DNA of 64,000 bases from IMG/VR virus record IMGVR_UViG_2915168811_000001. One strand, given 5' to 3'. Position 1 is the stretch's first letter. The number at the start of each line of letters is the position of its first letter. Positions 1,423 to 60,917 of the stretch are shown piece after piece. The DNA is from a virus. Made by a program: the position numbers and the translations under genes. The notes under the pieces were generated by a model. It had not been told where the DNA came from. It was given only the letters and a program-made list of their open reading frames with translations, and did no database searches.

Positions 1423-1662
1423 ATGGCGCGATCGACTTTCGTGTCCGGGCACGCCCTCCAATTCGAGGGGGCCGCGCACGATGAGACTGGACGCAAGATC
1501 CCCCGGACCGGGAACTACGGCGACGGCCGAGGCCTGTGCAGCTGCGGCGCACTCTCCCCCAGCGTCGGTTCCGGCAACAGACGGAAGGCCTGGCATCGCG
1601 AGCACAAGGCTACGATCTCCGCCGCACATACTCCAGCACATGAGCGCCCTGATCAGACATAA
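1423..1662 (+). CDS. Small Cys/His protein (CSCG...WHREH), possibly Zn-binding
   Basis: SD GGAGG, C-x-C and H-x2-H motifs. Confidence 0.6.
   Translation: MARSTFVSGHALQFEGAAHDETGRKIPRTGNYGDGRGLCSCGALSPSVGSGNRRKAWHREHKATISAAHTPAHERPDQT
1622..1633 (+). promoter_or_regulatory. Class II box CCGCACATA, leaderless
   Basis: CCGCACAT + 10 nt + ATG at 1640. Confidence 0.7.
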
Positions 1663-2668
1663 AGCCGGAACAGTCACCGCAGGACAGCAGTCCGGCGGTC
1701 GGTTCAAGCAACTCCAGCGTGAAGCCGCCACTGGGCCGGCCGCGCCACGGACGCGGTGGCTTTCCGACGAAGAGACGCGCTACGCGACCGAACTGATGGA
1801 GGAGAGGTTCTACAGCTCCGTCGTTGCGAAGCACGGACGGAGGGCTGACCGCGTACGCGACGACATCATCCAGGACACCATCATCGACCTCGGGGTGCGA
1901 GCGCAGGCGATGGGCATTGAACGGCTGAACAAAAGCCACGCAGGCCTTACCGTTCGGATCATGCAGGCGCGCGCGATCAGCAACATCTACAGCGAACATC
2001 ACACCGCCGCCTCAGGGCGCAAAGCCCTGGAGAAGCATCGCCAGGAGTTCGAGGCAAGCCTGGGCAGAGAGCTTTCCTCAAGCGAAATCTCAGAGCTCGC
2101 CGAGGAAGTGCGGCTGAGTTTCGCCCCCGGACGACGCCCTACCGTCGGCTACCACGAGGAGTTCGAGGCCTCCAGGCTCCACAGGGTGGCCGAGGAAATC
2201 GGTGCGAACGCTGCCCGTGCAGGTGTTGCATACCGGGACGTTTACCCGACGGAGATGGACCCCGAGCGCAGCGAGCATTTAGAGCAAGTGCTCGAGAGTC
2301 TGCAAGGTGAAGAGGGCGATGCCGTGTCGAAGAAGTACGCCAAAGAGGCGCTGAAAGAGGCCCGCAGCAACGTGTGGACGATGCTGCAGTCGGCCACGCC
2401 AGGACTTCCGCCTGCCCTGGGCCTGTCGGCCTGGAATGCCCAGAAACAGCGTGCCGCGCTCACCGCCGTCGGCGGGGCGCACGAGGCAGCCCGGCAATAT
2501 CTCAGCGGCGCCCTTGACGGGCCCGGCGCCGACGCATTGTTCTCCCCGTTCGGCATTCGTGACGGAAGCGACGGGGCTGAAGACCGTGAAGCGGTCGCCC
2601 AGAAGCTCGCCGCCACCGGCGATGCGGCCGGCAAAGTGTGGAGTTCAGCGGCTCAGACGCGTCGCTGA
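1640..2668 (+). CDS. N-terminally tagged protein with sigma70 region 2/3-like segments
   Basis: Shared tag RHKAGTVTAGQQSGGRFKQLQR; DDIIQDTIIDL (region 2-like) and EFEASLGRELSSSEISELAE (region 3-like). Confidence 0.5.
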   Translation: MSALIRHKAGTVTAGQQSGGRFKQLQREAATGPAAPRTRWLSDEETRYATELMEERFYSSVVAKHGRRADRVRDDIIQDTIIDLGVRAQAMGIERLNKSHAGLTVRIMQARAISNIYSEHHTAASGRKALEKHRQEFEASLGRELSSSEISELAEEVRLSFAPGRRPTVGYHEEFEASRLHRVAEEIGANAARAGVAYRDVYPTEMDPERSEHLEQVLESLQGEEGDAVSKKYAKEALKEARSNVWTMLQSATPGLPPALGLSAWNAQKQRAALTAVGGAHEAARQYLSGALDGPGADALFSPFGIRDGSDGAEDREAVAQKLAATGDAAGKVWSSAAQTRR

Positions 2669-2704
2669 CTCAACGGCGGCGCATCGGTTGCTACAGTCAA
2701 GCTC

Positions 2705-3052
2705 ATGGCAACGAAACAGACTGTGCAGTTCATCGACGACGTCGACGGTTCAACCATCGACGGCGGCACCGACCCCGCTGTGCAGTTTGGGCTCGACGGC
2801 CGGGCGTACGAAATCGACCTCACGGATGAGAACGCCGCAGCCCTGCGCAGCACCTTCGCACCGTACATCGCAGCAGGACGGAAGGCGCAGTCACGCACCA
2901 GCGCATCAGCTGCGCCTGCTGCCGCCAAGGATCCTGATCGTGTCGTCCTGCTCGCCGAAGCGCGCGTCTGGGCTCGCGAGAACGGTCACACCGTGTCGGA
3001 CCGCGGCCGTATCGCGGCACCGATCATGGACGCATTCCTCGCACAGCGGTAA
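2705..3052 (+). CDS. lsr2: Lsr2-family nucleoid-associated protein
   Basis: IDDVDG, FGLDGRAYEIDL, RVWARENG..VSDRGRI; leaderless after extended -10 TGCTACAGT (2689-2697). Confidence 0.95.
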   Translation: MATKQTVQFIDDVDGSTIDGGTDPAVQFGLDGRAYEIDLTDENAAALRSTFAPYIAAGRKAQSRTSASAAPAAAKDPDRVVLLAEARVWARENGHTVSDRGRIAAPIMDAFLAQR

Positions 3053-3085
3053 CAGCGCCGACACTCTGACCTAGGAGGTTCGATC

Positions 3086-3286
3086 GTGGAAGTCACCACG
3101 TACCTGTTCATCTCCCTGTCAGCTGTTGGCGCAGCCATGGCCGTGTACGGACTCCAGGGGCTCGTGAAGCGCCGTCGGGCAGCGGCCGAGCCGCAGGATC
3201 CCGGCGCCAAGGTGCCGCCATACACAATGGGTGTCGTGCTCGGCGTCCTCCTCATCCTGATCGGACTCCTCGGCGCGCTCTTGTAG
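3086..3286 (+). CDS. Small two-TM membrane protein
   Basis: SD AGGAGG; two hydrophobic segments. Confidence 0.65.
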   Translation: MEVTTYLFISLSAVGAAMAVYGLQGLVKRRRAAAEPQDPGAKVPPYTMGVVLGVLLILIGLLGALL

Positions 3287-3291
3287 CTCAG

Positions 3292-16082: not shown

Positions 16083-16097
16083 GCGAAAGTGGAGAAA

Positions 16098-17772: not shown

Positions 17773-17875
17773 GCGAGTTCCGTACCTTCCGTCTTGCGGC
17801 CTTGGCCGATCCACTCGCGTCCACCACTTTCGATAACTGACAACCTGATGCCCCAAAACTATCACTTAGTCACAC

Positions 17876-24171: not shown

Positions 24172-24186
24172 CCGCGCGCCGCCGCG

Positions 24187-24198
24187 CCGCGCATCACT
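24187..24198 (+). promoter_or_regulatory. Class I box + hairpin
   Basis: GGCTGCA-TGG-TGCAGCC. Confidence 0.75.
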
Positions 24199-44760: not shown

Positions 44761-44772
44761 CCGCACATATGC
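44761..44772 (+). promoter_or_regulatory. Class II box CCGCACATA, leaderless
   Basis: CCGCACAT + 10 nt + ATG at 44779. Confidence 0.7.
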
Positions 44773-44778
44773 CAACAC

Positions 44779-45888
44779 ATGAGCAACTCGCGCCAGGACC
44801 CGCCCCGCCACGATCGCGGCAGCAAAGTTGCCGGTCAGAGTGCCGGCGGCCGCTACAAAGATCACATCCGCACCGCCGCGTCGCTCATGTACTCCGACGC
44901 TGAAGGTGCGAGCGAACAGCGCAATGCGATCCTCGCGCGGCTCGCGCAGACCGGCTCAGTGCCAGCAACTACGGTCGAATCCGCGACCGACCCGAAATTC
45001 ACCGACGGCATCGATGTGTGGTGGTCCCAGCACTTCGAGCGCATGGAGCAGCCGCCCGAAGGCAAAGCGTTCAAGATCATGCCGGACGACTACACGCCGA
45101 AGGAAACCGGTGGGCTCGCCCTCTCCGGCAAGCGGCGCACGCATCGCATTCGGTACTCGGGCGCCGGCGTCGAACTCCGCATGCCGTCAGCCACCTCGAT
45201 CCGCCGATTCTCCGCCGAGAACGGCAAGCGATCCTTTGATGTGCCGATCGAGCTCGAGCACGGCGGCGGCAAAGTCTCCGGGTTCGTGCGCGTCACGCAA
45301 GGTGCCGCTGGCGTCTGGGATGTCCAGGCGCTGAACTTCCCCGGGCAGGCCGGTGGCCGCGCCGCCGAGGCCGTCGCTGCAGTGCTTGAAGCTCGCCGGC
45401 CGTCCCTGGCTCTTCGCGATGCGGAGCGCCAGTACGAAGCGCAGCGAATCGCCGTCGCGAAGGGCGTGAACCTCCCAACTGCCACCGGGGCGTCAGCACT
45501 GCACCAGCGTCGCATCAACCGCACCTCGCGCGCTGGCGTCGAGCTGAAGGCTCCGCGGGTGCCGTCCGCGGTCGTGACCGGTGGCGCGTACGACCACGGC
45601 ACCAACACGATGATGGTCCGCCTCGGTAAACGCACGTACGGCTACCAGGTCGACCCGAAGGTGTTTCGCGAAGTCATGGGTTCCGGAGCGCCGGGGCGCG
45701 CGTACAACGAGCTCGTGAAAAACCGCAGCAAGCGGGTGGAACTCAAGCACTGCAACAAATGCTCGCGGTGGTCGCACGGCGCTGTTCGCCACGCCTGCCC
45801 GGCGAAACCGAAGACGACCGGCACCCAGGATGCGTTCCGTTCCAGCGTCGCCACGATGCTGCTCAGCACGCTGAAAAAGGCCGCGTAA
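44779..45888 (+). CDS. N-terminally tagged protein with KTSC-like domain and Zn finger
   Basis: Tag RHDRGSKVAGQSAGGRYKDHIR; S.....AYD....M.V.....Y.Y.V....F.......PGR.YN..VK; CNKC..H.C. Confidence 0.7.
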   Translation: MSNSRQDPPRHDRGSKVAGQSAGGRYKDHIRTAASLMYSDAEGASEQRNAILARLAQTGSVPATTVESATDPKFTDGIDVWWSQHFERMEQPPEGKAFKIMPDDYTPKETGGLALSGKRRTHRIRYSGAGVELRMPSATSIRRFSAENGKRSFDVPIELEHGGGKVSGFVRVTQGAAGVWDVQALNFPGQAGGRAAEAVAAVLEARRPSLALRDAERQYEAQRIAVAKGVNLPTATGASALHQRRINRTSRAGVELKAPRVPSAVVTGGAYDHGTNTMMVRLGKRTYGYQVDPKVFREVMGSGAPGRAYNELVKNRSKRVELKHCNKCSRWSHGAVRHACPAKPKTTGTQDAFRSSVATMLLSTLKKAA

Positions 45889-45983: not shown

Positions 45984-46682
45984 ATGGCTGGCCGTACCCC
46001 CATCACAATCGTTGGCAACATCACCGAGGACCCCAAGCTGCTTTTCACGCAGGCCGGTGTCGCGATCGTCAACCTCACGGTTGCGCACACCCCGAGCCAC
46101 TTCGACAAGAGCACGAACTCCTGGGTTGATGAGCCCACCACCTTCATGCCCGTCAAGGCGTTCCGTGAGCTGGCTCAGCACGCAGGCGCTTCGTTCACGA
46201 AGGGTTCCCGCGTCGTCGTCACCGGCGATCTGAAGACCGAGACGTGGCAGGCGAAGGACGTCAACAACCAGCTGATGGTTGACCCGAACGGCCAGCCGGT
46301 GATGCGCAGCAAGGTCGTCATCGAGGCGGAGGACATCGGCGGCAGCGTCCGTTACGGCACGATCACCGGGTTTCAGAAGGCGGCCCCGAACACTGGAGCA
46401 GCTGCTCCGGTGGCTCAGGCGGCTCCGCAGGGCCAGGTGATGCAGCCGCAGGGCCAGCCGGTCCAGCAGTTCGCTCCGCAGGGCCAGCCCCAGCAGCAGC
46501 AGCAGTTCACCCAGCAGGCTCCGCAGGGCCAGCCGGTCCAGCAGTTCGCGCAGCAGGCTCCGCAGGGCCAGCCCCAGCAGCAGTTCGCTCCGCAGGGCCA
46601 GCCGATCCAGCAGGGTCAGCCTGTCGCCGCGGGCGTCCAGGGTCAGCCTGCCGCTCCGGGCCTGTCGGACCTCGCTTTCTAG
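45984..46682 (+). CDS. ssb: Single-stranded DNA-binding protein with Gln-rich tail
   Basis: ITIVGNITEDP, KGSRVVVTG; QAPQGQP repeats; DLAF tip. Confidence 0.93.
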   Translation: MAGRTPITIVGNITEDPKLLFTQAGVAIVNLTVAHTPSHFDKSTNSWVDEPTTFMPVKAFRELAQHAGASFTKGSRVVVTGDLKTETWQAKDVNNQLMVDPNGQPVMRSKVVIEAEDIGGSVRYGTITGFQKAAPNTGAAAPVAQAAPQGQVMQPQGQPVQQFAPQGQPQQQQQFTQQAPQGQPVQQFAQQAPQGQPQQQFAPQGQPIQQGQPVAAGVQGQPAAPGLSDLAF

Positions 46683-46697
46683 GGAGACCCGACATTT

Positions 46698-46733
46698 CGA
46701 CCCCGCCAGCTTCTCCGGAGGCTGGCGGGGTCG
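46698..46733 (+). terminator. GC-rich hairpin after ssb
   Basis: CGACCCCGCCAGC...GCTGGCGGGGTCG. Confidence 0.75.
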
Positions 46734-46746
46734 TCCCCGTTTCCCC

Positions 46747-46760
46747 GGATCGCATGTGTG
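46747..46760 (+). promoter_or_regulatory. tra-region motif GGATCGYATGTGTG, copy 1
   Basis: Also at 51097 and 52448; all three are intergenic. Confidence 0.65.
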
Positions 46761-46793
46761 TGAGTGAACGACAGATTTCCTGAAAGGACCGCA

Positions 46794-47660
46794 ATGGGCG
46801 AGCAGCCGATCCGCCTTCGAGCAGGGGCAGTAACGCGAGCGCGATATGCTTTCGCGTCGAAAACGGGGCGCACCGTGCTCGCGTTCACCGTTGTCGCCGC
46901 ACTGTCCGCTGGTGCCGCCTGGCAGTGGCCAGTCGTTGAGCGCGCGTTCTACGACGTCACAGGTCTCCAGTCCCCTCAAGAGGTCGCCGAACGGGAGGAG
47001 CGCGCTGTTTCCGCGTCCCGCCTCGAAATGATGATCGAAGAGGCGGTAGGGGTTGAGCTCGAAGGCACTTCGGTCGATACGGTGAAGAAGAGCTTCGCTG
47101 AGCTGCAGAAGGAAATCACTCACGCACGTGCAGAACTGAAAGCGCGCACGACCGCCTCAGAACTTGATGACGCGCGCCGCACGCTGTCGGCAGCTCTGGA
47201 CACTCATGAACGCGCAGTGGTTGACGCCGCAGCTGCGAAGAAGAAAGCAGACGACGAAGCCGCTGCTGCACTTGCCGCTCAGCAAGCGGCGGACGCCGCA
47301 GCCGCTCAGGCAGCCGCCGAGGCAGCTGCAGCTACGGCTGCCCAGGGTGGAGGTGTCAGCCAAGGCGGCGGCGGCGGAAACCCAGGTGGTGGTGGCGGTG
47401 GCGGCGGCGGCGCGCCTGCCGCTCCCCCAGCAAGCACCACACGAGCCACGCAGAGCCTGTCAATGACCTGCTCGGGCAGCGAATCAGTGACAGTGTCCGC
47501 GAACGGCGGAGGCAACGTCGTCGTCACCGCAAACGGGGTGTCCTCATCTGGAGCTGGAAGCGCCTCCGTGACTGTGCAGGTTTCAGGTGCCCTGAACGCT
47601 ACGGCGTCCGGTGACGGCAGCGTCTCGATCTTCGCCTCGGCGACGTACACCTGCAGGTGA
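46794..47660 (+). CDS. Membrane-anchored coiled-coil, Gly-rich protein
   Basis: N-terminal TM, Ala-rich coil, poly-Gly linker. Confidence 0.7.
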   Translation: MGEQPIRLRAGAVTRARYAFASKTGRTVLAFTVVAALSAGAAWQWPVVERAFYDVTGLQSPQEVAEREERAVSASRLEMMIEEAVGVELEGTSVDTVKKSFAELQKEITHARAELKARTTASELDDARRTLSAALDTHERAVVDAAAAKKKADDEAAAALAAQQAADAAAAQAAAEAAAATAAQGGGVSQGGGGGNPGGGGGGGGGAPAAPPASTTRATQSLSMTCSGSESVTVSANGGGNVVVTANGVSSSGAGSASVTVQVSGALNATASGDGSVSIFASATYTCR

Positions 47661-48079
47661 TCGACATGGATCAGGTCATCGCTACCCTCCCCGACGGATG
47701 GCAGTTCGTCCTCGGGGCAATCATCGTGCTCGGTATCCTGTTCCGCCGCCGCGGGACATCCAACAAGGACCCTAAGAGAGCGTTCGACAGTGAGCAGCGC
47801 AGAAAAGGCTTCGCGCTCGCGTCCTCCCAATGCGAGATGAGTACGCCGTGGATGACCAGATGCACCGCAACCGCATCCCACGCCGATCACTTCTACCCGC
47901 ACGCCAAAGGCGGAGCCTCGTCAATGATGAACCTCGTTGCCGCGTGCGCGCCGCACAACCTCTCCAAAGGAGCGAAGCTGCCATCCGCGGTCGACCGCGC
48001 GCTGATCTCCGCCCGCCGCCGCAACTACTTCCCCGCCGATCTCGAGCGCAAGCCCGGCGAATGGTACCGAGGGGTATGA
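47657..48079 (+). CDS. Membrane-anchored HNH endonuclease
   Basis: N-terminal TM; ADHFYPHAKGG...NLVAACAPHNLSKG. Confidence 0.8.
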   Translation: MIDMDQVIATLPDGWQFVLGAIIVLGILFRRRGTSNKDPKRAFDSEQRRKGFALASSQCEMSTPWMTRCTATASHADHFYPHAKGGASSMMNLVAACAPHNLSKGAKLPSAVDRALISARRRNYFPADLERKPGEWYRGV

Positions 48080-48080
48080 C

Positions 48081-50402
48081 ATGACCGAACACACCGAACA
48101 TCGTGACGAAGCCGAGGAAAGCATCCCGCCTGAGCGGGAAGACACAAGCTCGACCAAGCCGCGATCCGTGGACGGCAAAGTACAAGCAAGTGCGCAGCGC
48201 ACAGAGTCTGCGATCGACGCCAGGATTCAAGCGATCGGCAAGCAGCCACCGCCAGCAAAGCCCAGCGTCCCGCTGAATCGAGCAACCCCTTCCGCAGTGA
48301 GCACCTCTGCGCAAGGCGCAAGGACAGCAGCTGCCGGCGTGAAAGGGGCGGGTGCCGCCGCGGCATCTGTCGGCGGCGCCACCGCGGCCGCCCAGCATGT
48401 CTCCGCTGCGGGGAGCACCGCAAAAAGCGCCGCCACTGCTGCGAAGACCGCGAAGGCTGGATCCCTCCAAGGCGCGGCCGTGGAGAAAGGCGTCAGCTCC
48501 GCCCTCAACAAGGGTCTGCGGATCAATAGCTCCACCCCTGACTCGAAACTCGGAGCCGCCAAAGCCCTTGCGTCGAATGTTGTCTCCGGCGCCGCGGGAG
48601 GAGCCGCCACCGGAGCGGCGGGCTCCGCACCCGGAGCTATCGCTGGCGCGGCCCTCGGCGCGGCGAAAGGGGTGGCTTCCACTGCAGCCACCAACAAGCC
48701 GTTCCGGAACCTCCTCATCGGGGTTGCAGCTGTTCTCGCAGCCGCCCTCTTCGCTTTACCTGTCGGCGTCGCCGTCGCTCTCGCGGCCGTTGCTTCGACC
48801 TCCATGGGGTCTTCGCTGATGATCGCGTCCAGTGACTCTGCCGCCACTCATGGGTTGAGCTCAGATGAGGTGGAAGCCGCCGTAGGGCGGGCAGAAGGTG
48901 GCGATGTCGCCCCGTGGACGATATTCGCGGCGATCCCCCAGGTCCTCACCCTCTCGGACGAAACTGGACCGGAACCGTCAGAGCTCGACGACTTCCTCGC
49001 GAAATTCACTGCCGCTCTGGATGAGAAAGATCCGACCCGTGAGCTGCGCAACGTAGACGCCGGTGCGGTGACCGACGAGATGCTGACATCACGGGCACGC
49101 ACCGTGCTTCCGCCTGAAGAAGGCGGTGACCCGGACGCATGGGCTGCGCAGGAAGCGGTCAAGGCCCTGTACGTCGACGCGCTCACCGCCGCGTCAGCTA
49201 CCCCCGATGAGGCGGAGCGGATCTACAACCTGTCCCTCGCGTTCGAGCTCGGCGCCGCACCGACCTGCGGCCTGGATCTCGGAGGAGCTCCTGCGGGAGG
49301 GGACAGCGGCGGCGGGAACACATTGGACACGATGTCTCCGGAGCAGATCGCGAACGGGCGGGTGATTATCGGTGTCGCGAAAACCATGTTCGGCAAGGAC
49401 TGGGAGCAAGCCGCGGTGATCGCCATCATGACATCGCTTCGTGAATCCGGCGGGATGAAGATTTTCGCGAACGACGGTGTGATCGGTAACCGTCCCGGGG
49501 AAGCGGAACGAACCGATGAGTACCCCGCTTCCGCCTACGACCTTGTCGCCAAATCCATGACCCTCCCCCACCAGGCTGTCGGTTCGGACTACGTCTCCTT
49601 GGGGCTGTTCCAGCAGCAGCTGACCGGGTCGTGGGGCACGCTCGACGGCAAGAACTGGAAGAACGACCCCATGGGGACGATGCAGCGTCTCATGGACCCT
49701 GCGTTCTCCACCTACGCTTTCTTCCGGGTCATGCAGACCAAAGAAGGCTGGCAGACCGGCGACCCTGTCGTCATCTCCCACAAAGTCCAGGGTTCCGCCC
49801 ACCCGGACGGGCCCGCTGAGCATCTTCCGACGGCGAAAGCGTTCGTCAAGCAACACTCCGACGCAGCCGAAGTGCCACTTCCCACCGGCGCGACGCCTGC
49901 TGATTCCGCCGCCGGCGATGCAGTCTGCGACGGAGCGCTCACCGCAGGCCTCATCGTCGGCGGGTTCACGCACCCGCTCGGCAAGGAATTCCCGTGGGCG
50001 AGCTACGTGGACGACGGCGGCTCCCATTCCGCTGGCGCCATGGACATTCCGGCGCCGTCCGGAACTCCGGTGTACGCGATCGCCGCTGGCACCGTCCTGG
50101 CGTCCGGATGGGAGGAAGGCGGCGGCGGCAACCTCATCTCGATCATGCACGCCGACGGCAACGCTTCCGCGTACGCTCACCTCTCCCAAATGGATGTGAA
50201 GCCAGGGCAGGTGGTGAAAGCAGGCCAGCGGATCGGGCTTGTCGGATCGACAGGCAACTCGAGCGGTCCGCATCTGCATTTCGAGATCCGCGTGAACGGG
50301 AAATGGGGCAAGTTCGTGAAAGCCCACCAGTACATGAAGAAGCACGGTATCGAGATGGGCCCGTGCACCGCCGCTGCATCTGTGTGCGGAATGTCCCAGT
50401 AG
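48081..50402 (+). CDS. Conjugative peptidoglycan hydrolase (M23 peptidase, probable lysozyme-like domain)
   Basis: TM; LRES...SLGLFQQ; H...MDI, YAHL, GPHLHFE. Confidence 0.85.
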   Translation: MTEHTEHRDEAEESIPPEREDTSSTKPRSVDGKVQASAQRTESAIDARIQAIGKQPPPAKPSVPLNRATPSAVSTSAQGARTAAAGVKGAGAAAASVGGATAAAQHVSAAGSTAKSAATAAKTAKAGSLQGAAVEKGVSSALNKGLRINSSTPDSKLGAAKALASNVVSGAAGGAATGAAGSAPGAIAGAALGAAKGVASTAATNKPFRNLLIGVAAVLAAALFALPVGVAVALAAVASTSMGSSLMIASSDSAATHGLSSDEVEAAVGRAEGGDVAPWTIFAAIPQVLTLSDETGPEPSELDDFLAKFTAALDEKDPTRELRNVDAGAVTDEMLTSRARTVLPPEEGGDPDAWAAQEAVKALYVDALTAASATPDEAERIYNLSLAFELGAAPTCGLDLGGAPAGGDSGGGNTLDTMSPEQIANGRVIIGVAKTMFGKDWEQAAVIAIMTSLRESGGMKIFANDGVIGNRPGEAERTDEYPASAYDLVAKSMTLPHQAVGSDYVSLGLFQQQLTGSWGTLDGKNWKNDPMGTMQRLMDPAFSTYAFFRVMQTKEGWQTGDPVVISHKVQGSAHPDGPAEHLPTAKAFVKQHSDAAEVPLPTGATPADSAAGDAVCDGALTAGLIVGGFTHPLGKEFPWASYVDDGGSHSAGAMDIPAPSGTPVYAIAAGTVLASGWEEGGGGNLISIMHADGNASAYAHLSQMDVKPGQVVKAGQRIGLVGSTGNSSGPHLHFEIRVNGKWGKFVKAHQYMKKHGIEMGPCTAAASVCGMSQ

Positions 50403-50415
50403 GAAAGGTGAACTC

Positions 50416-51075
50416 ATGAGCAAAAAGACTCTGTTACTGCTCGGCGGTGCAGTGCTCGCGGCGGTAGCTATCGTCGCGGCATTGTTTCTGCTGCGCCCCG
50501 CAGCGACCGAATCCCAGCCCGTGAACCCGCCCGCTGAACTCGGGTTAGACCAGGGGAATAGCACTGCGGATGATGCGGTCGTGACGCCAGAGGGCGACAG
50601 CATCATCCTCCCTGACAACTCCGGCTACATTACGGGCCCGAACGGCGAAACGCAGGCGACGACAGTCGAGATGGGTGACGTCCCGCAGCAGTTCCTCGAC
50701 CAGGGGGCTCGTCTCGCCGAGGTGTGGGTGAACTTCGACTCCTCAAAGGGCGCGGAGCGGGAAGCTAACCTCGCGACAGTGATCCCCAACGCCGCCGACT
50801 GGGCATCACATCGCCCGTCAGTGCACACGACCTCGAAATCGTCAGGGGATCCGACCTGGAAGACCATCTCGGTGGTGCAGTCCGCCCGAGCTGACGCGGA
50901 GATGTCGATGTCGATCGACGGCCAGCACCGCGTCGTCACGGAGGTTTCCTTCCAGGCGAAGCACTGGTCCAGCGGAATCACGTACATGGGATCAGAAACC
51001 ACAACGTCTGTGTGGGTGTTCATCTTCGACCAGAACGGAGCACTGGTGGACGTCATCGAGCCGGACATCGCATAG
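50416..51075 (+). CDS. Membrane-anchored protein of the conjugation block
   Basis: N-terminal TM; gene context. Confidence 0.65.
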   Translation: MSKKTLLLLGGAVLAAVAIVAALFLLRPAATESQPVNPPAELGLDQGNSTADDAVVTPEGDSIILPDNSGYITGPNGETQATTVEMGDVPQQFLDQGARLAEVWVNFDSSKGAEREANLATVIPNAADWASHRPSVHTTSKSSGDPTWKTISVVQSARADAEMSMSIDGQHRVVTEVSFQAKHWSSGITYMGSETTTSVWVFIFDQNGALVDVIEPDIA

Positions 51076-51096
51076 TTTCCAGCCCGCTCTCGAACT

Positions 51097-51110
51097 GGAT
51101 CGTATGTGTG
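51097..51110 (+). promoter_or_regulatory. tra-region motif, copy 2
   Basis: GGATCGTATGTGTG. Confidence 0.65.
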
Positions 51111-51162
51111 TCAGTAGACGGGTTTTCAAGGGTTGCCCGCAGCACACACGAAAGGGGCCATC

Positions 51163-51777
51163 ATGGCTTGGAAAGACACCATCGACGAAGAGGCTACCGA
51201 CTTCAGCGCACCCGAGGTGCCGCTTCCCGATGTCGAACTTGACGGCGAAACCGGCAGTGCGGACGCCACCGAAGACACTTACGAGGATCTCGGAGACAGC
51301 ACCACGCTGGCCAGCGCCGGGAAGCCCCGCGCCAAGAAGCGTGCCGGTGGCGCGGCAGCGACCGGTCTAACCCGCAGTCAGGTGCTCGGTGTGATCGCCA
51401 CCCAGGATGCGGTTGCGGAAGCCACGCAGGGCGCCCGCGACGTTCTCGGCTCGCTCTACAAGTCGGACACGGACGTCGACGAGCTCACCGTCATGATCGT
51501 CTCGCAGCGAAAGCTGTCATCCGACCCACTCTCGGACCTGCTCAGCCTGCTTGAAGCGATGAAGCAGAATCCGTTCCTGGCGATCGCTCAGCTCACCGGG
51601 ATGGATAAAGCCACCCGCAGCCGAGTGCACGCCATTCTCGCCGCGGCCGGTGCGCAGCTCGAAGCCATGCCGAAGGGTGAAGCAGAAGCTGCGGCAGCCC
51701 TGGGTATGGCGCTGCAGGGTGTCACTTCCGCGCAGGAGGACACCCTCGCTGAAGCACAGCTGATCCGCGAAGGCTAA
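51163..51777 (+). CDS. Hypothetical protein
   Basis: SD GAAAGGGG; acidic N-terminus. Confidence 0.7.
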   Translation: MAWKDTIDEEATDFSAPEVPLPDVELDGETGSADATEDTYEDLGDSTTLASAGKPRAKKRAGGAAATGLTRSQVLGVIATQDAVAEATQGARDVLGSLYKSDTDVDELTVMIVSQRKLSSDPLSDLLSLLEAMKQNPFLAIAQLTGMDKATRSRVHAILAAAGAQLEAMPKGEAEAAAALGMALQGVTSAQEDTLAEAQLIREG

Positions 51778-51780
51778 GTC

Positions 51781-52395
51781 ATGGCGCGCTGCGTGAGCTG
51801 GAGGTACCGGTCATCCACCGGGCATGCAAACCACCTCCCCGGTGGGTGCCGGAAATGCTGGTCCCCGTGCCGAGCGAAAGTGGCTCGCCGCGGCGATCGA
51901 TGCCTGGACTGTGTACGCTCCATCCTCACCTGCCCGGACCAGCGGGTGCGCGCCGCCCTCCTCGATGAAGTGAAGCTCCCTGACGACGTTCTGGAGATGC
52001 TAATTTCCGACCCGCATGTCGTCATCGCCTCTCGAGCGGCTGAACTTCGAGCCGCTCGAGAGGCCGCAGCGGATCCGGAAAGCCCGTCAGATGACGAGCT
52101 AGAGCCGGATCTAAGCGGGGAGGACACGAACCCGGTCGACGAAGCCAGTGCGATCAGTGAGACGGGCTTCGACGCGGACGGGCCCTGGCCGCTGCCTGCA
52201 GGCGAGGGCGAAGGCGAGGAGGCGGTCGATCACGTGCTCACCACTGAAACCGACATGGTCTCAGAGCAGGAGCCTGCGGACACCCTCCGAGGGATTCGCG
52301 ACGCGAACGGTACCGCCCCGCGCTCACCCCAGAAGGTAAGCCGTACCCGAAACATCAGCCTGACCGACGCGTACGGCGACCCTGCAGCCCAGTAA
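51781..52395 (+). CDS. Hypothetical Cys-rich/acidic protein
   Basis: Co-directional ORF. Confidence 0.55.
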   Translation: MARCVSWRYRSSTGHANHLPGGCRKCWSPCRAKVARRGDRCLDCVRSILTCPDQRVRAALLDEVKLPDDVLEMLISDPHVVIASRAAELRAAREAAADPESPSDDELEPDLSGEDTNPVDEASAISETGFDADGPWPLPAGEGEGEEAVDHVLTTETDMVSEQEPADTLRGIRDANGTAPRSPQKVSRTRNISLTDAYGDPAAQ

Positions 52396-52447
52396 CACAG
52401 CCGATCCAACCCCGCCTTGCGCCCGCAGGCGGGGTTGTTCGCTTCCC

Positions 52448-52461
52448 GGATCGTATGTGTG
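52448..52461 (+). promoter_or_regulatory. tra-region motif, copy 3
   Basis: GGATCGTATGTGTG. Confidence 0.65.
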
Positions 52462-52494
52462 GGGGTGAAGCGGAAAATCACCTTTGGAGGATCA

Positions 52495-53589
52495 GTGGCG
52501 AAGCGTAAGCCTGGCGAGACGAACATTCGGGAAGCCTTCGAGATGCCCGCCGTTGCGGAGAACCCATCATCCCTCACGGTGATCAAACAGGCATCACGGA
52601 AAAAGCTCCTCCGCTTCGCCGTCTACGTGATGGCGTTCGGCTTGGTCCCGCTCTGCATCGGCATCGTGCTGATCATGTTCACCGAAAGCGGTTCAGGAAA
52701 AGGTGACGCCAACGCATCGGTCACCTCGGAGTCCGTAAACGGGGCGCTCGGAAAGGCGGCGGCGACGCTCGCCATTTCCGACTGGCTCGGCCAGGACCCG
52801 CAGCCGCTGCCCGGCGGCACTGTCATCTCCTGGGACGGGTTCACCGAACGGGACGCGCCCGCTCCGAAAACCGACTCTGAAGTGAAAGTGACGTACGCGG
52901 AAGAGCTCCACCGTTTCACACTCGTCGACAGCGCAGGGCGGGTGTTCGACTCCCAGGTGATGGTGCTCGTCGACGGGGTCCGCGGCACGAAAGCAGTGGG
53001 AACGCCGACGCTGATGCCTCGCCCCGCCAACGCGACCAGTGAGTTCACCGGTGAGGTGCCGTGGTTCGGATACACGAACACCACCGCCCCAGACCCCGTG
53101 GTCACTGCGGTGCAGGGATGGGCGGAAGCATTCACCTCAGGCTCCCCGAAGCGACTAAAGCAGGAAGTTGCCGACCCGACCGCCGATCACGCCTTCGTTC
53201 CACTGGCCGGGGTAGCGACTGTGGAGCAGAAGATCATCGCGTCAGCGGTACTGACCCCGGCGGAGCCTGACTCGCCGGCGCCGACGCAGATGCTCGCCCG
53301 CGTTGAGCTGATGCTCACCTGGGTGGATGCGCCAGCGCAGGACACGACCGCGGCAGCGCCGACCCTCACCCCGGTCACCTTCGACGTCCTGATCACTGGC
53401 ATCGACACCGCGTCACCCCGCGTCGTCTCCTGGGGCGGCGTCGGCGACGGCCCGACCTTGAAGCCGTACTCCTCCGCGCTCGTCGGCGTCAGCCTCAAGG
53501 AGCCGGAAAAGAAGAGCGCAGACGGCGAGCCCGTCACGCCTGGCAGCGCGGTGGAGAGCGCACCCGCAGCAGAGACCACGAAGGGCTAA
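52495..53589 (+). CDS. TcpC/VirB8-like conjugation protein
   Basis: Single TM plus two extracellular domains, directly upstream of the VirB4-like gene. Confidence 0.55.
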   Translation: MAKRKPGETNIREAFEMPAVAENPSSLTVIKQASRKKLLRFAVYVMAFGLVPLCIGIVLIMFTESGSGKGDANASVTSESVNGALGKAAATLAISDWLGQDPQPLPGGTVISWDGFTERDAPAPKTDSEVKVTYAEELHRFTLVDSAGRVFDSQVMVLVDGVRGTKAVGTPTLMPRPANATSEFTGEVPWFGYTNTTAPDPVVTAVQGWAEAFTSGSPKRLKQEVADPTADHAFVPLAGVATVEQKIIASAVLTPAEPDSPAPTQMLARVELMLTWVDAPAQDTTAAAPTLTPVTFDVLITGIDTASPRVVSWGGVGDGPTLKPYSSALVGVSLKEPEKKSADGEPVTPGSAVESAPAAETTKG

Positions 53590-53593: not shown

Positions 53594-56131
53594 ATGGCAA
53601 AGAAAATCCAGACCGCACCCGAAATCCCGGTCTCCCCGCAGTGGGAAACCCGCTCCCTGAAGCCGCTCAGCGACGGACGAGTACCCGGTGTCGACGGATC
53701 GATGTGGCTGTACGGCAGCGTGCCGATGTCGGCGATCATCGACGCGAAGTCGATGGACAAAATGCTGGCCGGCGGCGGCAGCCTGCACTCCGTATACGAG
53801 GAGCTCGCGAAGCTCGCGTCCGCGGGAATCAACCGCGCAGCTTCGAAGGCGAGCTACCGCGAATTCCACCTGCTGCTGCTGAACGTGCCTTCATACTACG
53901 AGGCGCCGGAAAGCTCACCGATCCGCGGATACCTCAACACCGAGTTCCGTGACCGTATCGTGCAGCGCCGAGAACTTCTCTTCGGAGTAAAGCTGCGCTC
54001 GAGCGGCACCGCCGCTGCTGGAACCGGCAGAGAGAAGCTGAAAGGCGCGATCGACTCGTTCCTCTACACGCTGATGTACACCGGCACGCAGCTGTCCGAC
54101 TACGACCAAGATCACCGCGAAATCGCCGGCATCTTCTCCCGCGCCGGCATCACCATCCCCTCCAAAGACTCCCTGCGCTGGTCAGACTCCTGGTGGTCGC
54201 ACGGCCGCGCGAAAGCGATCCCAACTCTCCCCCACGACGACCATCTCCACTACATCTACGAGATGAACGCGAAACGGGAGATTGAAGCGAACTACGACGT
54301 CGCATCCTGCCGCAACTGGCCTGAAGGCGACGAGCGGATCCAGGGTGAATTCGCGATCTCGTTCACCGCGCTGAACAACCTCGACGTCGGCGTGACTTCT
54401 GTTGAGGATTCCGTGGTGCGCTGGGCCCCGGCGCTGCTGGACGCAGGCGCCCGCGTCATCTCCGTGCGCGGGACCGTGGAGCCGCAGCGCGTCACCCGAG
54501 CGCAGCTGAAATCGCAGAAGAAGCGCATCGAACAGGACATGGAGGCGTTCGCTGAGAAGAACCGCAGCTCCCCCGACGAGCAGCGCCAGCGCCGCGACGA
54601 GCTCGCGATGCTGGAAACCTCCTACGCCCGCGACGAAGCCCCAGCGACACTGTTCGACTGCTCGGTCATTGTCGGCTTCGACTCCGTCGTGGAAGACCTA
54701 CGGAAGGTGACGCCGGTCGCTCTCGACCTGAACCCGCTGACGAACCTGCAGGCGGCCGCGTGGTACGAAACAATGATCTGCTCCAACGTGCGCGCGAACC
54801 CGCTGAAGCAGGATCTGCCGTGCACGACGATCGCCTACGCGGGCATTTCGAACCTCTCCCAGGTCGGTGACCCACCCAAATCCCCCAAGGCCGCGCTACT
54901 GGGCTTCACGGAGCGCGACGGGCAGCCCGTGTACGTCTCAGCGAACGCAGCGTCGCTCGCAGACGGTTACCCCCTCATGATCGTGCCGGGGGCCACTGGT
55001 GCTGGAAAGTCTCAAGTGCTGCAGTGGCTCGCGCACCAGTGGGGTCTCGCCGGCGTCCCGCAGTACATCATCGACCCGAAGCCGAAGTCTGACTTCTCCG
55101 CAGCAGTGAAGGCATCCGGCGGTGACGTGCACTCGTTCGACGGGTTCATTGAGGCTGACGGCCCACTTGACCCGATCCGGTACGCCGGCCCCGCGAACCT
55201 GCAGCTCGGCGTCCAGATCGCCTCCGACATGCTCGCCCGGGTCCGTCCGCTCTCCACCGAGCTGATGAACCAGATGGAGACCCCGCTCGCGAACGCCATC
55301 CGGTACGGCGTCGAGCAGGGGGCGACCGCGACCGGCGAGGCGCTCATCATCGCGGCGAGGGACAACGTCATCCCGCAGAACATCGTCGATCAGATCGTCG
55401 GCTTCGCGCAGACGTACCCCATGTTCCGGGCGACGTTCGGCCTGCATCCCGGCACGTCGTCGCTGTCCGTCTCCGACGGCATCACGCTGTTCATGGCAGG
55501 CAACTCGCAGTTCGAGTTCCCGGCCGCCGGCGCAACCGACATCACCCTCGCGACCCCTGGCGTGCGCACTTCGGTGAACGTGATGCGTCAGCTGGTGCGC
55601 GCCTCAGTTATGAACCTGTCCGGCCGCGGCGGCGTCCTGCACATCGACGAGGAGTGGATCTACGAGCTCGCGGCGCCAGATGAGCTCGTGCAGCTTGGAC
55701 GTCTCGCCCGGTCACAGAACGTGCTCGTCTGCCTGTACACGCAGACGCCGAAGGGCCCGCTCAATCTCGGGCTTGGTGGCTTCATCTCACGCGGCATCAT
55801 CGGCCATATCCCCGCCGAAGGTGAGGATCGCAGCCAGGCTGAAGCTGGCTTGAAGCTGTTCGGGTCCACGTCCGGAGAGATCCTGTCACGAGTCGTCGCG
55901 CCCGGCGAGGAGTCAGGGCGGCTGAACTGGCATTCGCTGAAAGCTCTGTGGGAACGCAACGACGACGGCACCCGAACCCTGCACCGCCCCGCAGTGTTCT
56001 TCCACGCTGACCTGCATGGCAACATCGCCCCGGTTGAAGTGCAGATCCCGCCGTCGTTCTTCGAGCTCGCCTCCACGAACCCGGAAGACGTACAACGTCG
56101 CGAAGCGAAAGCCGCCGGAGCATTCGTGTAG
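53594..56131 (+). CDS. VirB4-like conjugative ATPase
   Basis: GATGAGKS, IIDPK, LHIDEEW, LYTQ; 845 aa. Confidence 0.85.
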   Translation: MAKKIQTAPEIPVSPQWETRSLKPLSDGRVPGVDGSMWLYGSVPMSAIIDAKSMDKMLAGGGSLHSVYEELAKLASAGINRAASKASYREFHLLLLNVPSYYEAPESSPIRGYLNTEFRDRIVQRRELLFGVKLRSSGTAAAGTGREKLKGAIDSFLYTLMYTGTQLSDYDQDHREIAGIFSRAGITIPSKDSLRWSDSWWSHGRAKAIPTLPHDDHLHYIYEMNAKREIEANYDVASCRNWPEGDERIQGEFAISFTALNNLDVGVTSVEDSVVRWAPALLDAGARVISVRGTVEPQRVTRAQLKSQKKRIEQDMEAFAEKNRSSPDEQRQRRDELAMLETSYARDEAPATLFDCSVIVGFDSVVEDLRKVTPVALDLNPLTNLQAAAWYETMICSNVRANPLKQDLPCTTIAYAGISNLSQVGDPPKSPKAALLGFTERDGQPVYVSANAASLADGYPLMIVPGATGAGKSQVLQWLAHQWGLAGVPQYIIDPKPKSDFSAAVKASGGDVHSFDGFIEADGPLDPIRYAGPANLQLGVQIASDMLARVRPLSTELMNQMETPLANAIRYGVEQGATATGEALIIAARDNVIPQNIVDQIVGFAQTYPMFRATFGLHPGTSSLSVSDGITLFMAGNSQFEFPAAGATDITLATPGVRTSVNVMRQLVRASVMNLSGRGGVLHIDEEWIYELAAPDELVQLGRLARSQNVLVCLYTQTPKGPLNLGLGGFISRGIIGHIPAEGEDRSQAEAGLKLFGSTSGEILSRVVAPGEESGRLNWHSLKALWERNDDGTRTLHRPAVFFHADLHGNIAPVEVQIPPSFFELASTNPEDVQRREAKAAGAFV

Positions 56132-56210: not shown

Positions 56211-56906
56211 CTAGTTTGAGGTCCATCCTGCGGGCAGTCGCACTGGGAGACTGTCCGACTCCATGATGTAGACCAGGTCGTGAGAGTCTTCCGGGCTGCC
56301 GTAGTTGAAGCTGAACTGTTCTGTATCGAAATCGAACCCTTCGTCCTCTTCCAGGCCGGTCTTCGCCTCAGATGTGTGGACGCAGATAACGGTGTCCTCT
56401 GCACCTGATCGAGGATTGATGATCTGCGGAGCCACCCACCCTTCGTCATCAGTGGTGCGTTCTGGACTGACGATCAACTCCGGATAGAGATGCTGCGCTT
56501 CGCGCGCCACGTTCTTCCCCACGGCGTACATCGCATATCCGTCGTCCGGATACTGCTTGAGGTGAGCCAGCATCGCGCCCTGGATCGCTGCGAGGCGCTC
56601 CGTCTGCGTCATGTTTTCGAGATGGCCGAACGGCGACTTGTCCTCGGGTGCTTCCGGATCATCGTCGTAGACGGCGCAGTCGTTGATGTTCACGCGGACC
56701 CGGCCGGTCCCTTCAATGGTGTCGACTTCGATGACGACGGCGCCGTCGATCTCCGACCGGTACTGGATCAATTCGACCGCGCCGGGCATGTCATCTCCGC
56801 TGGTGATCGGCGGCGCGGACACCTCCGGGCGGTTCTGGGGCGCCCACTGCCCGCCGATCTGTTCTCCGGCTTTTACGGCGCCGGCTGCCTGTCGTTGAGT
56901 GCTCAT
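56211..56906 (-). CDS. N-terminally tagged acidic hypothetical protein
   Basis: Tag RQAAGAVKAGEQIGGQWAPQNR. Confidence 0.75.
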   Translation of the reverse strand: MSTQRQAAGAVKAGEQIGGQWAPQNRPEVSAPPITSGDDMPGAVELIQYRSEIDGAVVIEVDTIEGTGRVRVNINDCAVYDDDPEAPEDKSPFGHLENMTQTERLAAIQGAMLAHLKQYPDDGYAMYAVGKNVAREAQHLYPELIVSPERTTDDEGWVAPQIINPRSGAEDTVICVHTSEAKTGLEEDEGFDFDTEQFSFNYGSPEDSHDLVYIMESDSLPVRLPAGWTSN

Positions 56907-56912: not shown

Positions 56913-56924
56913 GAGTATGTGCGG
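56913..56924 (-). promoter_or_regulatory. Class II box CCGCACATA, leaderless
   Basis: CCGCACAT + 10 nt + ATG at 56906. Confidence 0.7.
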
Positions 56925-56951: not shown

Positions 56952-56963
56952 CCGCACATATTC
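56952..56963 (+). promoter_or_regulatory. Class II box CCGCACATA
   Basis: Divergent partner, upstream of the tagged gene at 57015. Confidence 0.65.
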
Positions 56964-57014: not shown

Positions 57015-57902
57015 GTGAACATCATCAGGCATCGCCGAGGCGAAACCGTTGCTGGCAATAAGTCAGGCGGTCGGTTTAAGAAACAGATCCGCCCTGAGTC
57101 CGACGGCATGAATCTCGCCGCGCCCGCGCACCTCGGACTCATCCCGGAGGAGCTCGAGGTGCAGTCGAAGTTCGTCCCTGAACCAGCGTTCATTCAGACG
57201 CCCGAGGAGATCGCCGCCGACAAGCGTGCGGTGAGACGCTGGTACGCGCCTCTGAGCAAAGGCCAGAGGCGCAACTGGAGTGACGTATCAGGTAAGTCGC
57301 ATCGTGACGATGGCCCGGCCCGGCTGGACCTGGAGTACGGAGAGCGCAGCTACTGGCAGCACGGCGAACTGCATCGCATGGACGGCCCGGCGGTCATAAG
57401 CCAGCATGGACGAAACGTCGAATACTGGGAGCACGGCAAGAGGGCGCGATCCGACGGCGGACCAGTGCTGGTGACCTACAGCCAGGGCGTGGAGACGCAG
57501 AGCTGGCTTGACGAAAATGAGCAGCCGCACCGGGAGGGCGCCCCAGCCGTCATGCGTTCGGACGGATTCGTGGAATGGCGCCAGCACGGGTACCTTCACC
57601 GTGAAGACGGTCCGGCGCGAGTCGACGAGAACGGGACACAGTTCTACTTCGAGGACGGTGTGCTGAACCGAGCTGATAACCAACCCAGCGTTGTATATGC
57701 AGACGGTGGCTTGGAGTGGTGGGAGGACGATGGCCGTGCGCTCACGAGAAAACTCGACGCGGAAGGCAATGACGTCACCCCACGGGACGCTGAAGGCAAC
57801 GTACTCCCGCCCGAGCTATACCCCGAGCACATGCTCCCTCATGGCGGAAACCGAACGTCTCTCATCCAACGGCGGGTACGAGCGTCGATGGCACTTCAGT
57901 AA
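57015..57902 (+). CDS. N-terminally tagged protein with HRxDGPA repeats
   Basis: Tag RHRRGETVAGNKSGGRFKKQIR; HRDDGPA, HRMDGPA, HREGAPA, HREDGPA. Confidence 0.8.
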   Translation: MNIIRHRRGETVAGNKSGGRFKKQIRPESDGMNLAAPAHLGLIPEELEVQSKFVPEPAFIQTPEEIAADKRAVRRWYAPLSKGQRRNWSDVSGKSHRDDGPARLDLEYGERSYWQHGELHRMDGPAVISQHGRNVEYWEHGKRARSDGGPVLVTYSQGVETQSWLDENEQPHREGAPAVMRSDGFVEWRQHGYLHREDGPARVDENGTQFYFEDGVLNRADNQPSVVYADGGLEWWEDDGRALTRKLDAEGNDVTPRDAEGNVLPPELYPEHMLPHGGNRTSLIQRRVRASMALQ

Positions 57903-58789: not shown

Positions 58790-58801
58790 AGGTATGCGCG
58801 G
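58790..58801 (-). promoter_or_regulatory. Class I box variant CCGCGCATACCT
   Basis: Upstream of the microprotein/kinase unit. Confidence 0.7.
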
Positions 58802-58856
58802 CGGGCTGTGAGGATCGCTCCTTCCGCAGAGCTACGTCTCGGCGTAGCCTGTCGGC

Positions 58857-59549
58857 ATGTGCGGACGCGTGATCGTGGACTACGACGAGATGATGCCAGT
58901 GGCGTCCGAATCGATGCTGGCCGACTGGTTATCCGGTATCCCGGAAGGCGCGGAGTCATCCTGGAACCTGAAACCCACACAGGGTCTTCCGATCGCGTTC
59001 ACGTCGCCGAAGGATGAAGCGAAGCGCTTCGAACTCGCCCATTGGTCACTGGTGCCTCCGTGGTCGAAGACGCTCACCTCGAAATACCCGACGTTCAACG
59101 CCCGCAGCGAGACGGTCACCGAGAAGCCAACGTTCAAGAACGCGGTGAAATCGAACCGATGCGTGATCCCGGTTTCCGGCTTCTACGAGTGGACCGGCCC
59201 GAAGGGCGACCGCACCCCGCACGCGATCTTCGGCCCATCCAAACTACTGCCGATGGCCGGGATTTACTCCTGGTGGCGCGACCCTGAAGCGCCGGAGGGT
59301 GAAGGATGGACCCTCACCGCGACGATCCTGACTCGCGCGTCGGCGGGAGTGATGGAGCAGATCCACGACCGCATGCCCGTGTTCCTCGACGACGAACTGA
59401 TGGGTGACTGGCTCGACCCCGGAACGGTCGGGGACCAGCTGCTCGTCGACGCCGTCTCGGAAGCCGCGGTGCCCTACTCAGAGCTTCTGCGCGAGCACGT
59501 AGTCGGACCGCTGCGGGGTGACGGGCCCGAGCTGCTGCTGCCCGTCTAG
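58857..59549 (+). CDS. SRAP/HMCES abasic-site protein
   Basis: MCGR start, FNARSET, GFYEW, IHDRMPV; leaderless after TAGCCT. Confidence 0.93.
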   Translation: MCGRVIVDYDEMMPVASESMLADWLSGIPEGAESSWNLKPTQGLPIAFTSPKDEAKRFELAHWSLVPPWSKTLTSKYPTFNARSETVTEKPTFKNAVKSNRCVIPVSGFYEWTGPKGDRTPHAIFGPSKLLPMAGIYSWWRDPEAPEGEGWTLTATILTRASAGVMEQIHDRMPVFLDDELMGDWLDPGTVGDQLLVDAVSEAAVPYSELLREHVVGPLRGDGPELLLPV

Positions 59550-59558
59550 GGTTGAGCC

Positions 59559-60020
59559 ATGGAGAACCGGAAACCTCTCGACAAAGAGCTGATGCCGCGC
59601 TCGTACTATTACGTTCTCATGATTTTCGCGACACCGCTTGGACTGCATCGTTTCGCCACCGGGCACAAGAAACATGCGATGCTGTTTCTTGGCACTTTCG
59701 GGCTGGGGCTGGGCTTCGTCACCTTTGCGGAAGCTTTCGGGGAGACCGGAAAACCTATTGCCGGTGGCATCGGATTCGCGCTGCTCGTCGTGTTCCTGCT
59801 TCTGCTTATCACGGACCTGGTGATGTACCCGTTCGCCGTGGGAGCGCTTTACGATCGGGTGCTGAATTCGCGCCGCATGAAAGCCCTGCAACTCAGCGCA
59901 GCAAACGCCCCCGCTGCTGACGCAGCGCCGGAGCCCCTGCTGCCACCTCTCCCGGCCCCCGAGAGCGCATCACTTTACGAGCACCTGCGCTCCGACCCGA
60001 ATCGACGAAGCGTTTCCTAG
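59559..60020 (+). CDS. TM2-domain-like membrane protein
   Basis: LGLHRF.TG; hydrophobic segments. Confidence 0.7.
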   Translation: MENRKPLDKELMPRSYYYVLMIFATPLGLHRFATGHKKHAMLFLGTFGLGLGFVTFAEAFGETGKPIAGGIGFALLVVFLLLLITDLVMYPFAVGALYDRVLNSRRMKALQLSAANAPAADAAPEPLLPPLPAPESASLYEHLRSDPNRRSVS

Positions 60021-60041
60021 ACGGCGACGGTCAGCGCGAGC

Positions 60042-60917
60042 TCACAGGGTGATGAGCATGTTGCGCGGTTGGGTCCGCTTCGGGAACGGGGTGCGCATAT
60101 TCTTCTTGCAGCCGTGATGGGCAGAGTATGTGCGATGCATCGCGACCATTGCGATACCTTCACTCTTCTTAACTACTTCGCCACAGAAGTGACACTTCTG
60201 CCGGCCCGGTGCCGGACCTGTCTCAAGAAGCTTGTCCCACTCAATTGCATGGGTGAACATCTGTTTCACGACGTCGTCCGGCTCACCGTTCATAGCGAAA
60301 AGCAATGCCGCTCGTGCTGCGTCGCGTCGTATTGCGCCGGGGCTGCTTGCGGCTTCTGCGAAACCGGGGATCAGCTCGGCCAGACGGCCCTGCTCTGAAT
60401 CAAAAGTTGGCTTCTTCGTCAGCAGCGGCTCAGGGTCGCGAGGCCCTTCCAACGCCTCGGGGATCCAGACGACTTTGGCGTATGTCGCGTCGATGACGTA
60501 ATCCTCCCCATCTTCGAGCTCCTCATCCTCGTCAGGGGCGAGGGACTGCATGGCGAACATATTGTCGACGATTTCTCTGACCTTCGGATTGTGGTCGATC
60601 GCATGCTTATCTGGGCCAAGAACCTTCGCAAGATTCCAGTGATCGTCTTCCTCGCCGAATCCCAGAATGAGGTATTCAGCTTCAGGATGCTCAGCCTGCA
60701 CGAGGTACGCCGCATTTTGCAGCAGCAGCTTCTCTTTGCGCAGCTGAGCGATGGCAATCTGCTCGGTGATGGCTGCGAGCTCGTTTTCGTTCATCGACTG
60801 GACGGCGAGCGGCGGACCAGAAGCTTCAGTGCGATGCGCCTGCGCGAACTTCCCGCCCATGGACACTCCAGCAGTTCGGGATCCCGCATCATGGCGGCGT
60901 GCATTCAAGTTGCTCAT
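60042..60917 (-). CDS. N-terminally tagged hypothetical protein
   Basis: Tag RHDAGSRTAGVSMGGKFAQAHR; C-terminal CHFC...H.GC. Confidence 0.75.
   Translation of the reverse strand: MSNLNARRHDAGSRTAGVSMGGKFAQAHRTEASGPPLAVQSMNENELAAITEQIAIAQLRKEKLLLQNAAYLVQAEHPEAEYLILGFGEEDDHWNLAKVLGPDKHAIDHNPKVREIVDNMFAMQSLAPDEDEELEDGEDYVIDATYAKVVWIPEALEGPRDPEPLLTKKPTFDSEQGRLAELIPGFAEAASSPGAIRRDAARAALLFAMNGEPDDVVKQMFTHAIEWDKLLETGPAPGRQKCHFCGEVVKKSEGIAMVAMHRTYSAHHGCKKNMRTPFPKRTQPRNMLITL

Follow-up and report, generated by a model that had tools for sequence, protein, structure and literature searches.

We analysed 64,000 nucleotides of the virus record IMGVR_UViG_2915168811_000001 from IMG/VR (the window), held in a contig of 217,787 bp, in which the genes starting at 1640 (+), 44779 (+), 56906 (-), 57015 (+) and 60917 (-) encode proteins that open with the same short peptide tag. 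An earlier note on this DNA had reported the tag, and translation from these five starts confirms it: 22 residues align without gaps and with 7 invariant columns, beginning at residues 6, 10, 5, 5 and 8, respectively, and thus within 10 residues of the initiator Met. A six-frame scan of the window recovers only these five matches, and the full tag pattern occurs 0 times in 20 Markov shuffles of the window. The bodies behind the tags are unrelated, as the note had also claimed, with no mutual BLASTP similarity (best E value 0.83).

Two of the five cargos, the products of 44779 and 1640, are conserved across the element family and keep a tag. The KTSC label given to the 44779 product is supported by recovery of the KTSC fold, and a relaxed tag pattern is present in 60 of its 69 homologues, most of the others appearing truncated. 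The label 'sigma-like' given to the 1640 product stays weak, as Sigma70_r2 is matched in 2/11 family members (best E value 0.0023) and a fold comparison gave no sigma-70 match; the G-x-F core of the tag is kept in 11/11 aligned members of this family. The Curtobacterium pS16 homologue of the 57015 repeat protein also has a tag-like stretch at its start. A Fic-family gene (start 17814, -) is a probable sixth tagged gene of a shorter flavour, not listed in the earlier note; its product is 45% identical to a clearly tagged Fic protein of the megaplasmid pACHL01.

The element belongs to a megaplasmid family

The window element is a member of the pACHL01/pMP7017 family of megaplasmids from actinobacteria, of which pMP7017 is published as conjugative (PMC8313286). 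The VirB4-like ATPase that marks this family matched 15 of 72,556 plasmids, every one an actinobacterial megaplasmid: pACHL01, plasmids of Arthrobacter, Paenarthrobacter and Curtobacterium, Bifidobacterium pMP7017 and its kin, and Euzebya. By the same protein, the closest named relatives belong to Leucobacter (55%) and Rathayibacter (49%). In the window, the KTSC gene lies 5′ of ssb and the transfer-associated cluster, and a conserved gene of this cluster is directly 5′ of the VirB4-like gene (Table 1). Core genes common to five relatives include the VirB4-like gene, two FtsK-like genes and a VirD4-like gene, the last present in 5/5 relatives compared but lying outside the window. MOB-suite recognised no relaxase, and five related plasmids gave no match to PF03237 or PF04860, the two terminase and portal families tried; a particle of an unfamiliar kind would escape such a search. 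At G003:C45, G004:C3, G005:C2 and G512:C14, the VirB4-like genes encode 1344-1572 residues and have insertions at the Walker A region that are probably inteins.

Each relative carries its own flavour of tag

A profile of the five tags retrieved 69 proteins among 1.8 billion, 68/69 with the tag at the N terminus, and a broader profile retrieved 1,054 clusters, with the core within the first 35 residues in 117 of the best 119. The cargo is diverse, as 184 tagged bodies fall into 56 clusters. Identified cargo includes an NAD-dependent ligase (on two plasmids), a CCA enzyme, Fic, LPD29 and KTSC proteins; most cargo is of undefined function.

Each relative examined bears a distinct tag flavour on many proteins. 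About 50 of the 541 genes of pACHL01 begin with a shorter flavour, R-x-P-x-G-x-P-x-G-G-Q-F, and a shorter-flavour tag is present on 29/448 genes of an A. caoxuetaonis plasmid; reversed controls for both counts gave 0 matches at the same score, and annotated gene starts agree with the tagged starts on both plasmids. Curtobacterium pS16 encodes 29-40 tags of mixed flavours, pMP7017 has its own flavour on six or seven proteins, and about 13 genes of an integrated element in genome G689 (L213-L219) open with a flavour that is rich in Gly and includes G-T-N-Q-H, two short tagged genes there resembling fragments. Tags are closer to other tags of the same element than to those of orthologues in 11/13 cases (p 0.001; the cases are not independent). 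Flavour therefore tracks the element and not the cargo, a pattern that could arise from gene conversion, from co-evolution with a reader that the element encodes, or from the two together.

Multiple copies of the pACHL01 flavour are present on only five pACHL01-type megaplasmids among the 72,556 plasmids, and a sample of 400 random Actinomycetes contained 0 genomes with multi-copy tags. Two tag-rich replicons lacking VirB4 proved on inspection to be fragments of the same megaplasmid family. Across 401 Micrococcaceae genomes, co-occurrence of the strict tag with VirB4 is weak (17 versus 5 genomes, 2 shared; the 17 include the unpublished G410), largely because of such element fragments and of divergent flavours (G453, G443 and G512 excepted). 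The chromosome of Arthrobacter sp. N1 holds an island of pACHL01-type genes at 2.33-2.42 Mb (L207-L212), 8-10 of them tagged, in which no VirB4-like gene was found.

A shared box precedes tagged genes

Tagging in the window coincides with a short upstream box that, from its position, probably acts as a promoter. The sequence CCGCACATA occurs exactly 4 times in the window against 0.3 expected, the copies at 56924 (-) and 56952 (+) forming one divergent pair, and a tagged gene lies downstream of every copy (4/4). The general element box CCGCGCATCAC, with 15 copies against 0.2 expected, precedes the fifth gene. The leaderless box genes of the window are 1640, 44779, 56906 and 60917, and 4/4 are tagged. 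The promoter sub-class described in the earlier note thus stands within the window (p 0.001-0.004 for the link between CCGCACATA and the tag) but is not tag-specific in relatives. There, the corresponding box is presumably a general private promoter with 195 copies in pACHL01 and 186 in the A. caoxuetaonis plasmid, the tagged share of leaderless-box genes is 27/123 and 21/98, and many tagged genes sit inside operons with ribosome-binding sites. With about a fifth of box genes tagged, the association in these two relatives (odds ratios of about 5 and 13, from approximate gene counts) represents enrichment and not a dedicated regulon. A general element box of the form CCGCGCAT(C/A)A, usually followed by GGTGA, is found at gene boundaries at about 17 sites between 1087 and 61869 and is a probable private promoter.

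In Leucobacter HY1910 (L088, L092), near-identical DNA spanning box, ATG and tag is common to 12 genes, with a short inverted repeat in the upstream box. This near-identity indicates that cassette copying probably spreads the tag, and suggests that such copying has been recent in this strain.

The tag is conserved as a peptide

The tag core consists of an upstream Arg, a Gly and G-[QRKE]-[FWY], followed by a downstream His/Arg and Glu. Across 73 tags, conserved columns reach nearly 2 bits at the first and second codon positions and are near background at the third, demonstrating that conservation operates at the amino-acid level, on a peptide rather than a DNA repeat. In the AlphaFold model of the 44779 product, the tag has a predicted local distance difference test (pLDDT) score below 50 and the body a score of about 95; in the AlphaFold 2 model of the 1640 product, the tag is disordered and the body is partly confident. 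Consistent with the earlier note, the tag is neither Sec-like nor Tat-like: it has no conserved RR, and a hydrophobic 19-mer above 1.8 is present in 0/76 tagged proteins versus 9/129 untagged ones, a sign that the cargo is soluble. The window flavour has a mean net charge of +2.5, whereas the charge is about 0 for pACHL01 tags and -1.6 for the phage motif.

No common family emerged when 147 and 80 tagged proteins were scanned against Pfam and NCBIfam, and the tag profile gave 0 matches to PDB sequences. Across Pfam, NCBIfam, the PDB and open-access papers (subscription journals lie outside this scope), the motif is not described. A likeness to the GGQ of release factors or of Pup was considered and dropped: Arg, Lys or Glu often replaces the Gln, and the motif does not lie at the C terminus.

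The tag core heads effector modules in phage head proteins

The core R...G-x3-G-G-Q-F also occurs directly before effector modules of phage head polyproteins. One match of the broader profile has three internal copies of the motif, weak GNAT and SAM-lyase matches, and a gene adjoining those for a Mu-like protease and capsid. A DNA-pattern scan of viral contigs located the motif in 49 viral stretches; a tblastn search of annotated phages with a 26-residue tag, which has low sensitivity, gave 0 matches. Among the motif proteins are fusions to portal, MuF, prohead protease and capsid, and their domains include ADP-ribosyltransferase, zeta kinase, NUDIX, 2H and Acb1. In five mapped cases, the motif is just 5′ of an enzyme module. 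The modules that directly follow the motif in phages are ADP-ribosyltransferase, zeta kinase, NUDIX or oxidoreductase, several of them joined to portal, MuF or protease. Profile-profile comparison links the window, pACHL01 and phage flavours at 88-96% over 15-19 columns (window versus phage, 88% over 15 columns), a comparison that is not fully independent because the phage set was chosen by a pattern resembling the plasmid one. In one protein of the 44779 family after another, the tag is itself of the phage-type flavour.

A candidate address for proteins delivered with DNA

The tag is selected as a protein, is portable between bodies and is element-specific in flavour. The earlier note had envisaged a portable peptide on unrelated cargo, and this view is borne out, the peptide being associated with megaplasmids of conjugative type and with the head modules of phages. 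Because the cases have in common soluble effectors of mobile DNA as it enters a new cell, we favour, at about even odds, the reading that the tag is a short linear motif addressing proteins for delivery together with mobile-element DNA. The disordered tag would label soluble proteins that accompany element DNA to the new cell; a transfer component encoded by the element would bind its aromatic core and hand the cargo to the recipient, where a DNA ligase, CCA enzyme, Fic protein and possibly a sigma factor could aid establishment. New cargo would be gained by recombinational copying of a cassette of box, ATG and tag, which would explain the promoter association in the window. The first candidates for the reader would be a VirD4-like coupling protein or an FtsK-like translocase. 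VirB4, with which the earlier note had linked the tag, is less likely and does not hold up as the specific partner, as tagged genes are not clustered near it. A plasmid-encoded SecY was rejected as a general reader, being matched only in two Arthrobacter-type plasmids; secG and secY lie on pACHL01 (L085:11238-12836) and on the A. caoxuetaonis plasmid, and were unmatched in pS16, G689 and pMP7017.

Several observations weigh against an address for co-delivery. Tagged genes are only modestly near FtsK/VirD4 genes, significantly so in 1/4 plasmids, and the window element is predicted to be conjugative from homology only. The N-terminal position asserted in the earlier note holds nearly always on plasmids but not in phages, where the motif is mostly internal (60 internal, 34 N-terminal), implying that a free N terminus is not essential. 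The signals known to direct conjugative translocation lie mostly at the C terminus or internally, and are degenerate (PMC11288057). Wide tag variation within pS16 is hard to accommodate with one strict receptor, and a capsid and a conjugation machine have no obvious receptor in common, so that what the tag binds in both might be a host factor or DNA.

A host factor features in the alternative that survives best, in which the tag is an intracellular docking motif that gathers cargo in the producing cell, with no transfer, on a shared hub such as RNA polymerase or another host machine, or an element-encoded scaffold or compartment. A conserved host partner would be the simplest account of use by both phages and plasmids, tagged genes are under the general promoter of the element and could be expressed after entry, and they show no linkage to VirB4. 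We nevertheless consider docking unlikely: flavours differ between elements within one host family, that of G689 greatly so, a difference more easily explained by a reader that the element encodes than by a host protein, and the phage motif is tied to head genes.

Alternatively, the tag could be a degron that controls how long early or toxic proteins persist, through Clp-type proteolysis, or a processing signal that marks prohead-protease release sites in phage polyproteins. The disordered terminal peptide, the location of the phage motif at module boundaries and the four ClpC-N-domain proteins encoded by pACHL01 (L086:42527-45951, near the VirD4/FtsK cluster) are compatible with such a role. 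However, ClpC-N genes were matched among Arthrobacter-type plasmids only and not in pS16, no cleavage residue is conserved upstream of the phage motif, and DNA ligase and similar core cargo would be odd targets, leaving this explanation improbable. Marginally less probable still is an Arg/Gly/aromatic arm that grips DNA and needs no protein receptor. DNA is the sole thing common to capsids and conjugation, the window flavour is basic and the tag may resemble AT-hook-like arms, but tag charge is not conserved between flavours and generic DNA binding would not predict element-specific ones. Last, a hitchhiking expression cassette, with promoter, start and first codons copied as DNA and the peptide nearly functionless, would account for the 12 Leucobacter genes and the association of box and tag, but is largely refuted as the whole explanation and barely credible as such, as residues are fixed while third codon positions are free, and the tag persists across different boxes and lineages, at Shine-Dalgarno-led starts inside operons and within phage polyproteins.

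The address reading can be extended to a broader proposal, which we regard as possible yet doubtful: that one ancient motif serves as a 'travel with the DNA' label in both phage heads and actinobacterial conjugation, with lineage-specific flavours co-evolved with an element-encoded reader and copied as cassettes onto dozens of effectors. Under this proposal, the tag would predict which effectors are transferred and could be used as a portable means of bringing proteins into actinobacteria. The wider question is which proteins Gram-positive conjugative elements send to recipients and how these are chosen, the known signals being degenerate. If the address reading is correct, a conserved label of 20-30 residues, borne by up to a tenth of megaplasmid genes, would reveal a full set of candidate effectors in one step, most of it proteins of undefined function, and would link plasmid effectors to phage head cargo. 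The idea is open to testing in cultured Arthrobacter strains and in pMP7017, a conjugative plasmid that is tractable.

Other genes of the window

Beyond the tagged genes, the window encodes an untagged 1583-residue fusion of a methylase and a superfamily 2 (SF2) helicase with DarB-like architecture (26575-31326, +), adjoined by a second helicase gene (24137-26512, +); both are typical anti-restriction cargo. A umuD/umuC-like pair (16089-16538 and 17925-19214, +) is split by the opposite-strand Fic gene. Just 5′ of the 44779 region, at 44290-44350 (-), units resembling CACACATA are repeated in tandem over a short stretch and could be iterons or binding sites.

Table 1 Tags, boxes and other features of the window
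Feature	Position	Strand	Remarks
Tag residues 6-27	1655..1720	+	342-aa gene 1640-2668; conserved core cargo, weakly sigma-like
Tag residues 10-31	44806..44871	+	369-aa KTSC-domain gene 44779-45888
Tag residues 5-26	56829..56894	-	acidic 231-aa gene 56211-56906
Tag residues 5-26	57027..57092	+	295-aa repeat protein 57015-57902; start codon GTG
Tag residues 8-29	60831..60896	-	291-aa gene 60042-60917; Zn-ribbon-like stretch C-terminal
CCGCACATA box	1622..1630	+	18 nt before ATG of 1640; leaderless
CCGCACATA box	44761..44769	+	18 nt before ATG of 44779; leaderless
CCGCACATA box	56916..56924	-	18 nt before ATG of 56906; leaderless
CCGCACATA box	56952..56960	+	63 nt before GTG of leadered gene 57015
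General element box CCGCGCATCAC	60925..60935	-	18 nt before ATG of 60917
Fic-family gene	16543..17814	-	start carries probable short-flavour tag P-R-x3-G-R-Y
Transfer-associated cluster	45987..53589	+	SSB, HNH, M23 peptidase, membrane proteins
VirB4-like ATPase	53594..56131	+	weak AAA_10 Pfam match; marker of megaplasmid family
R2K ATP-grasp	12928-14043	+	
DprA	20002-20907	+	
Sortase	40317-40847	+	
dNMP kinase	58020-58730	-	
PRTase	61927-62778	+	

Comparison with known systems

Short portable terminal peptides are known from the capsid-targeting sequence of phage T4 internal proteins and from encapsulin cargo-loading peptides. The tag is likewise a short terminal peptide on unrelated cargo; by contrast, no sequence likeness to these peptides was seen, and the related plasmids gave no terminase or portal match. 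Xanthomonas XVIPCD is a C-terminal domain signal of about 120 residues. Among signals of type IV secretion systems more generally, those of the F/pED208 conjutome (PMC11288057) and the relaxase TSA (PMC3912908) share with the tag its proposed role of substrate label for protein transfer through conjugation-type machines. These known signals are mostly C-terminal charge patches, internal folded surfaces or a C-terminal domain of about 120 residues, whereas the tag is short, strongly conserved, N-terminal and disordered, and is present on up to about 9% of plasmid genes.

The pMP7017 34-bp plasmid-specific regulon motif (Dineen et al. 2024; PMC10832533) resembles the window box in being private to the element; it overlaps the -10 region, ends in CCACATA and precedes one tagged pMP7017 gene. 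Its homology to the window box is unproven, and the passages of that paper on the motif do not mention the peptide.

Closest in concept are polyvalent proteins, whose effector modules are proposed, in the passages of Iyer et al. 2017 (PMC5512222) that treat them, to enter together with the DNA from phage heads or through the conjugation apparatus, with ArdC-N as a 'header' for conjugative delivery. In fusions to portal, MuF and protease, the motif core stands at the front of such modules, and the settings correspond: a VirB4-like gene and M23 cluster in the window, VirD4 and FtsK genes in relatives, and head modules for the phage motif. The window proteins differ in having 231-369 residues and one cargo each, multi-domain architecture being confined to the phage relatives, and in that their header is a disordered peptide of about 22 residues and not a folded domain, borne separately by each small gene; the same passages contain no description of this peptide. 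Judged from sequence, the tag appears to work like a substrate label for co-transferred proteins, yet in position and architecture it stands apart from each known family.

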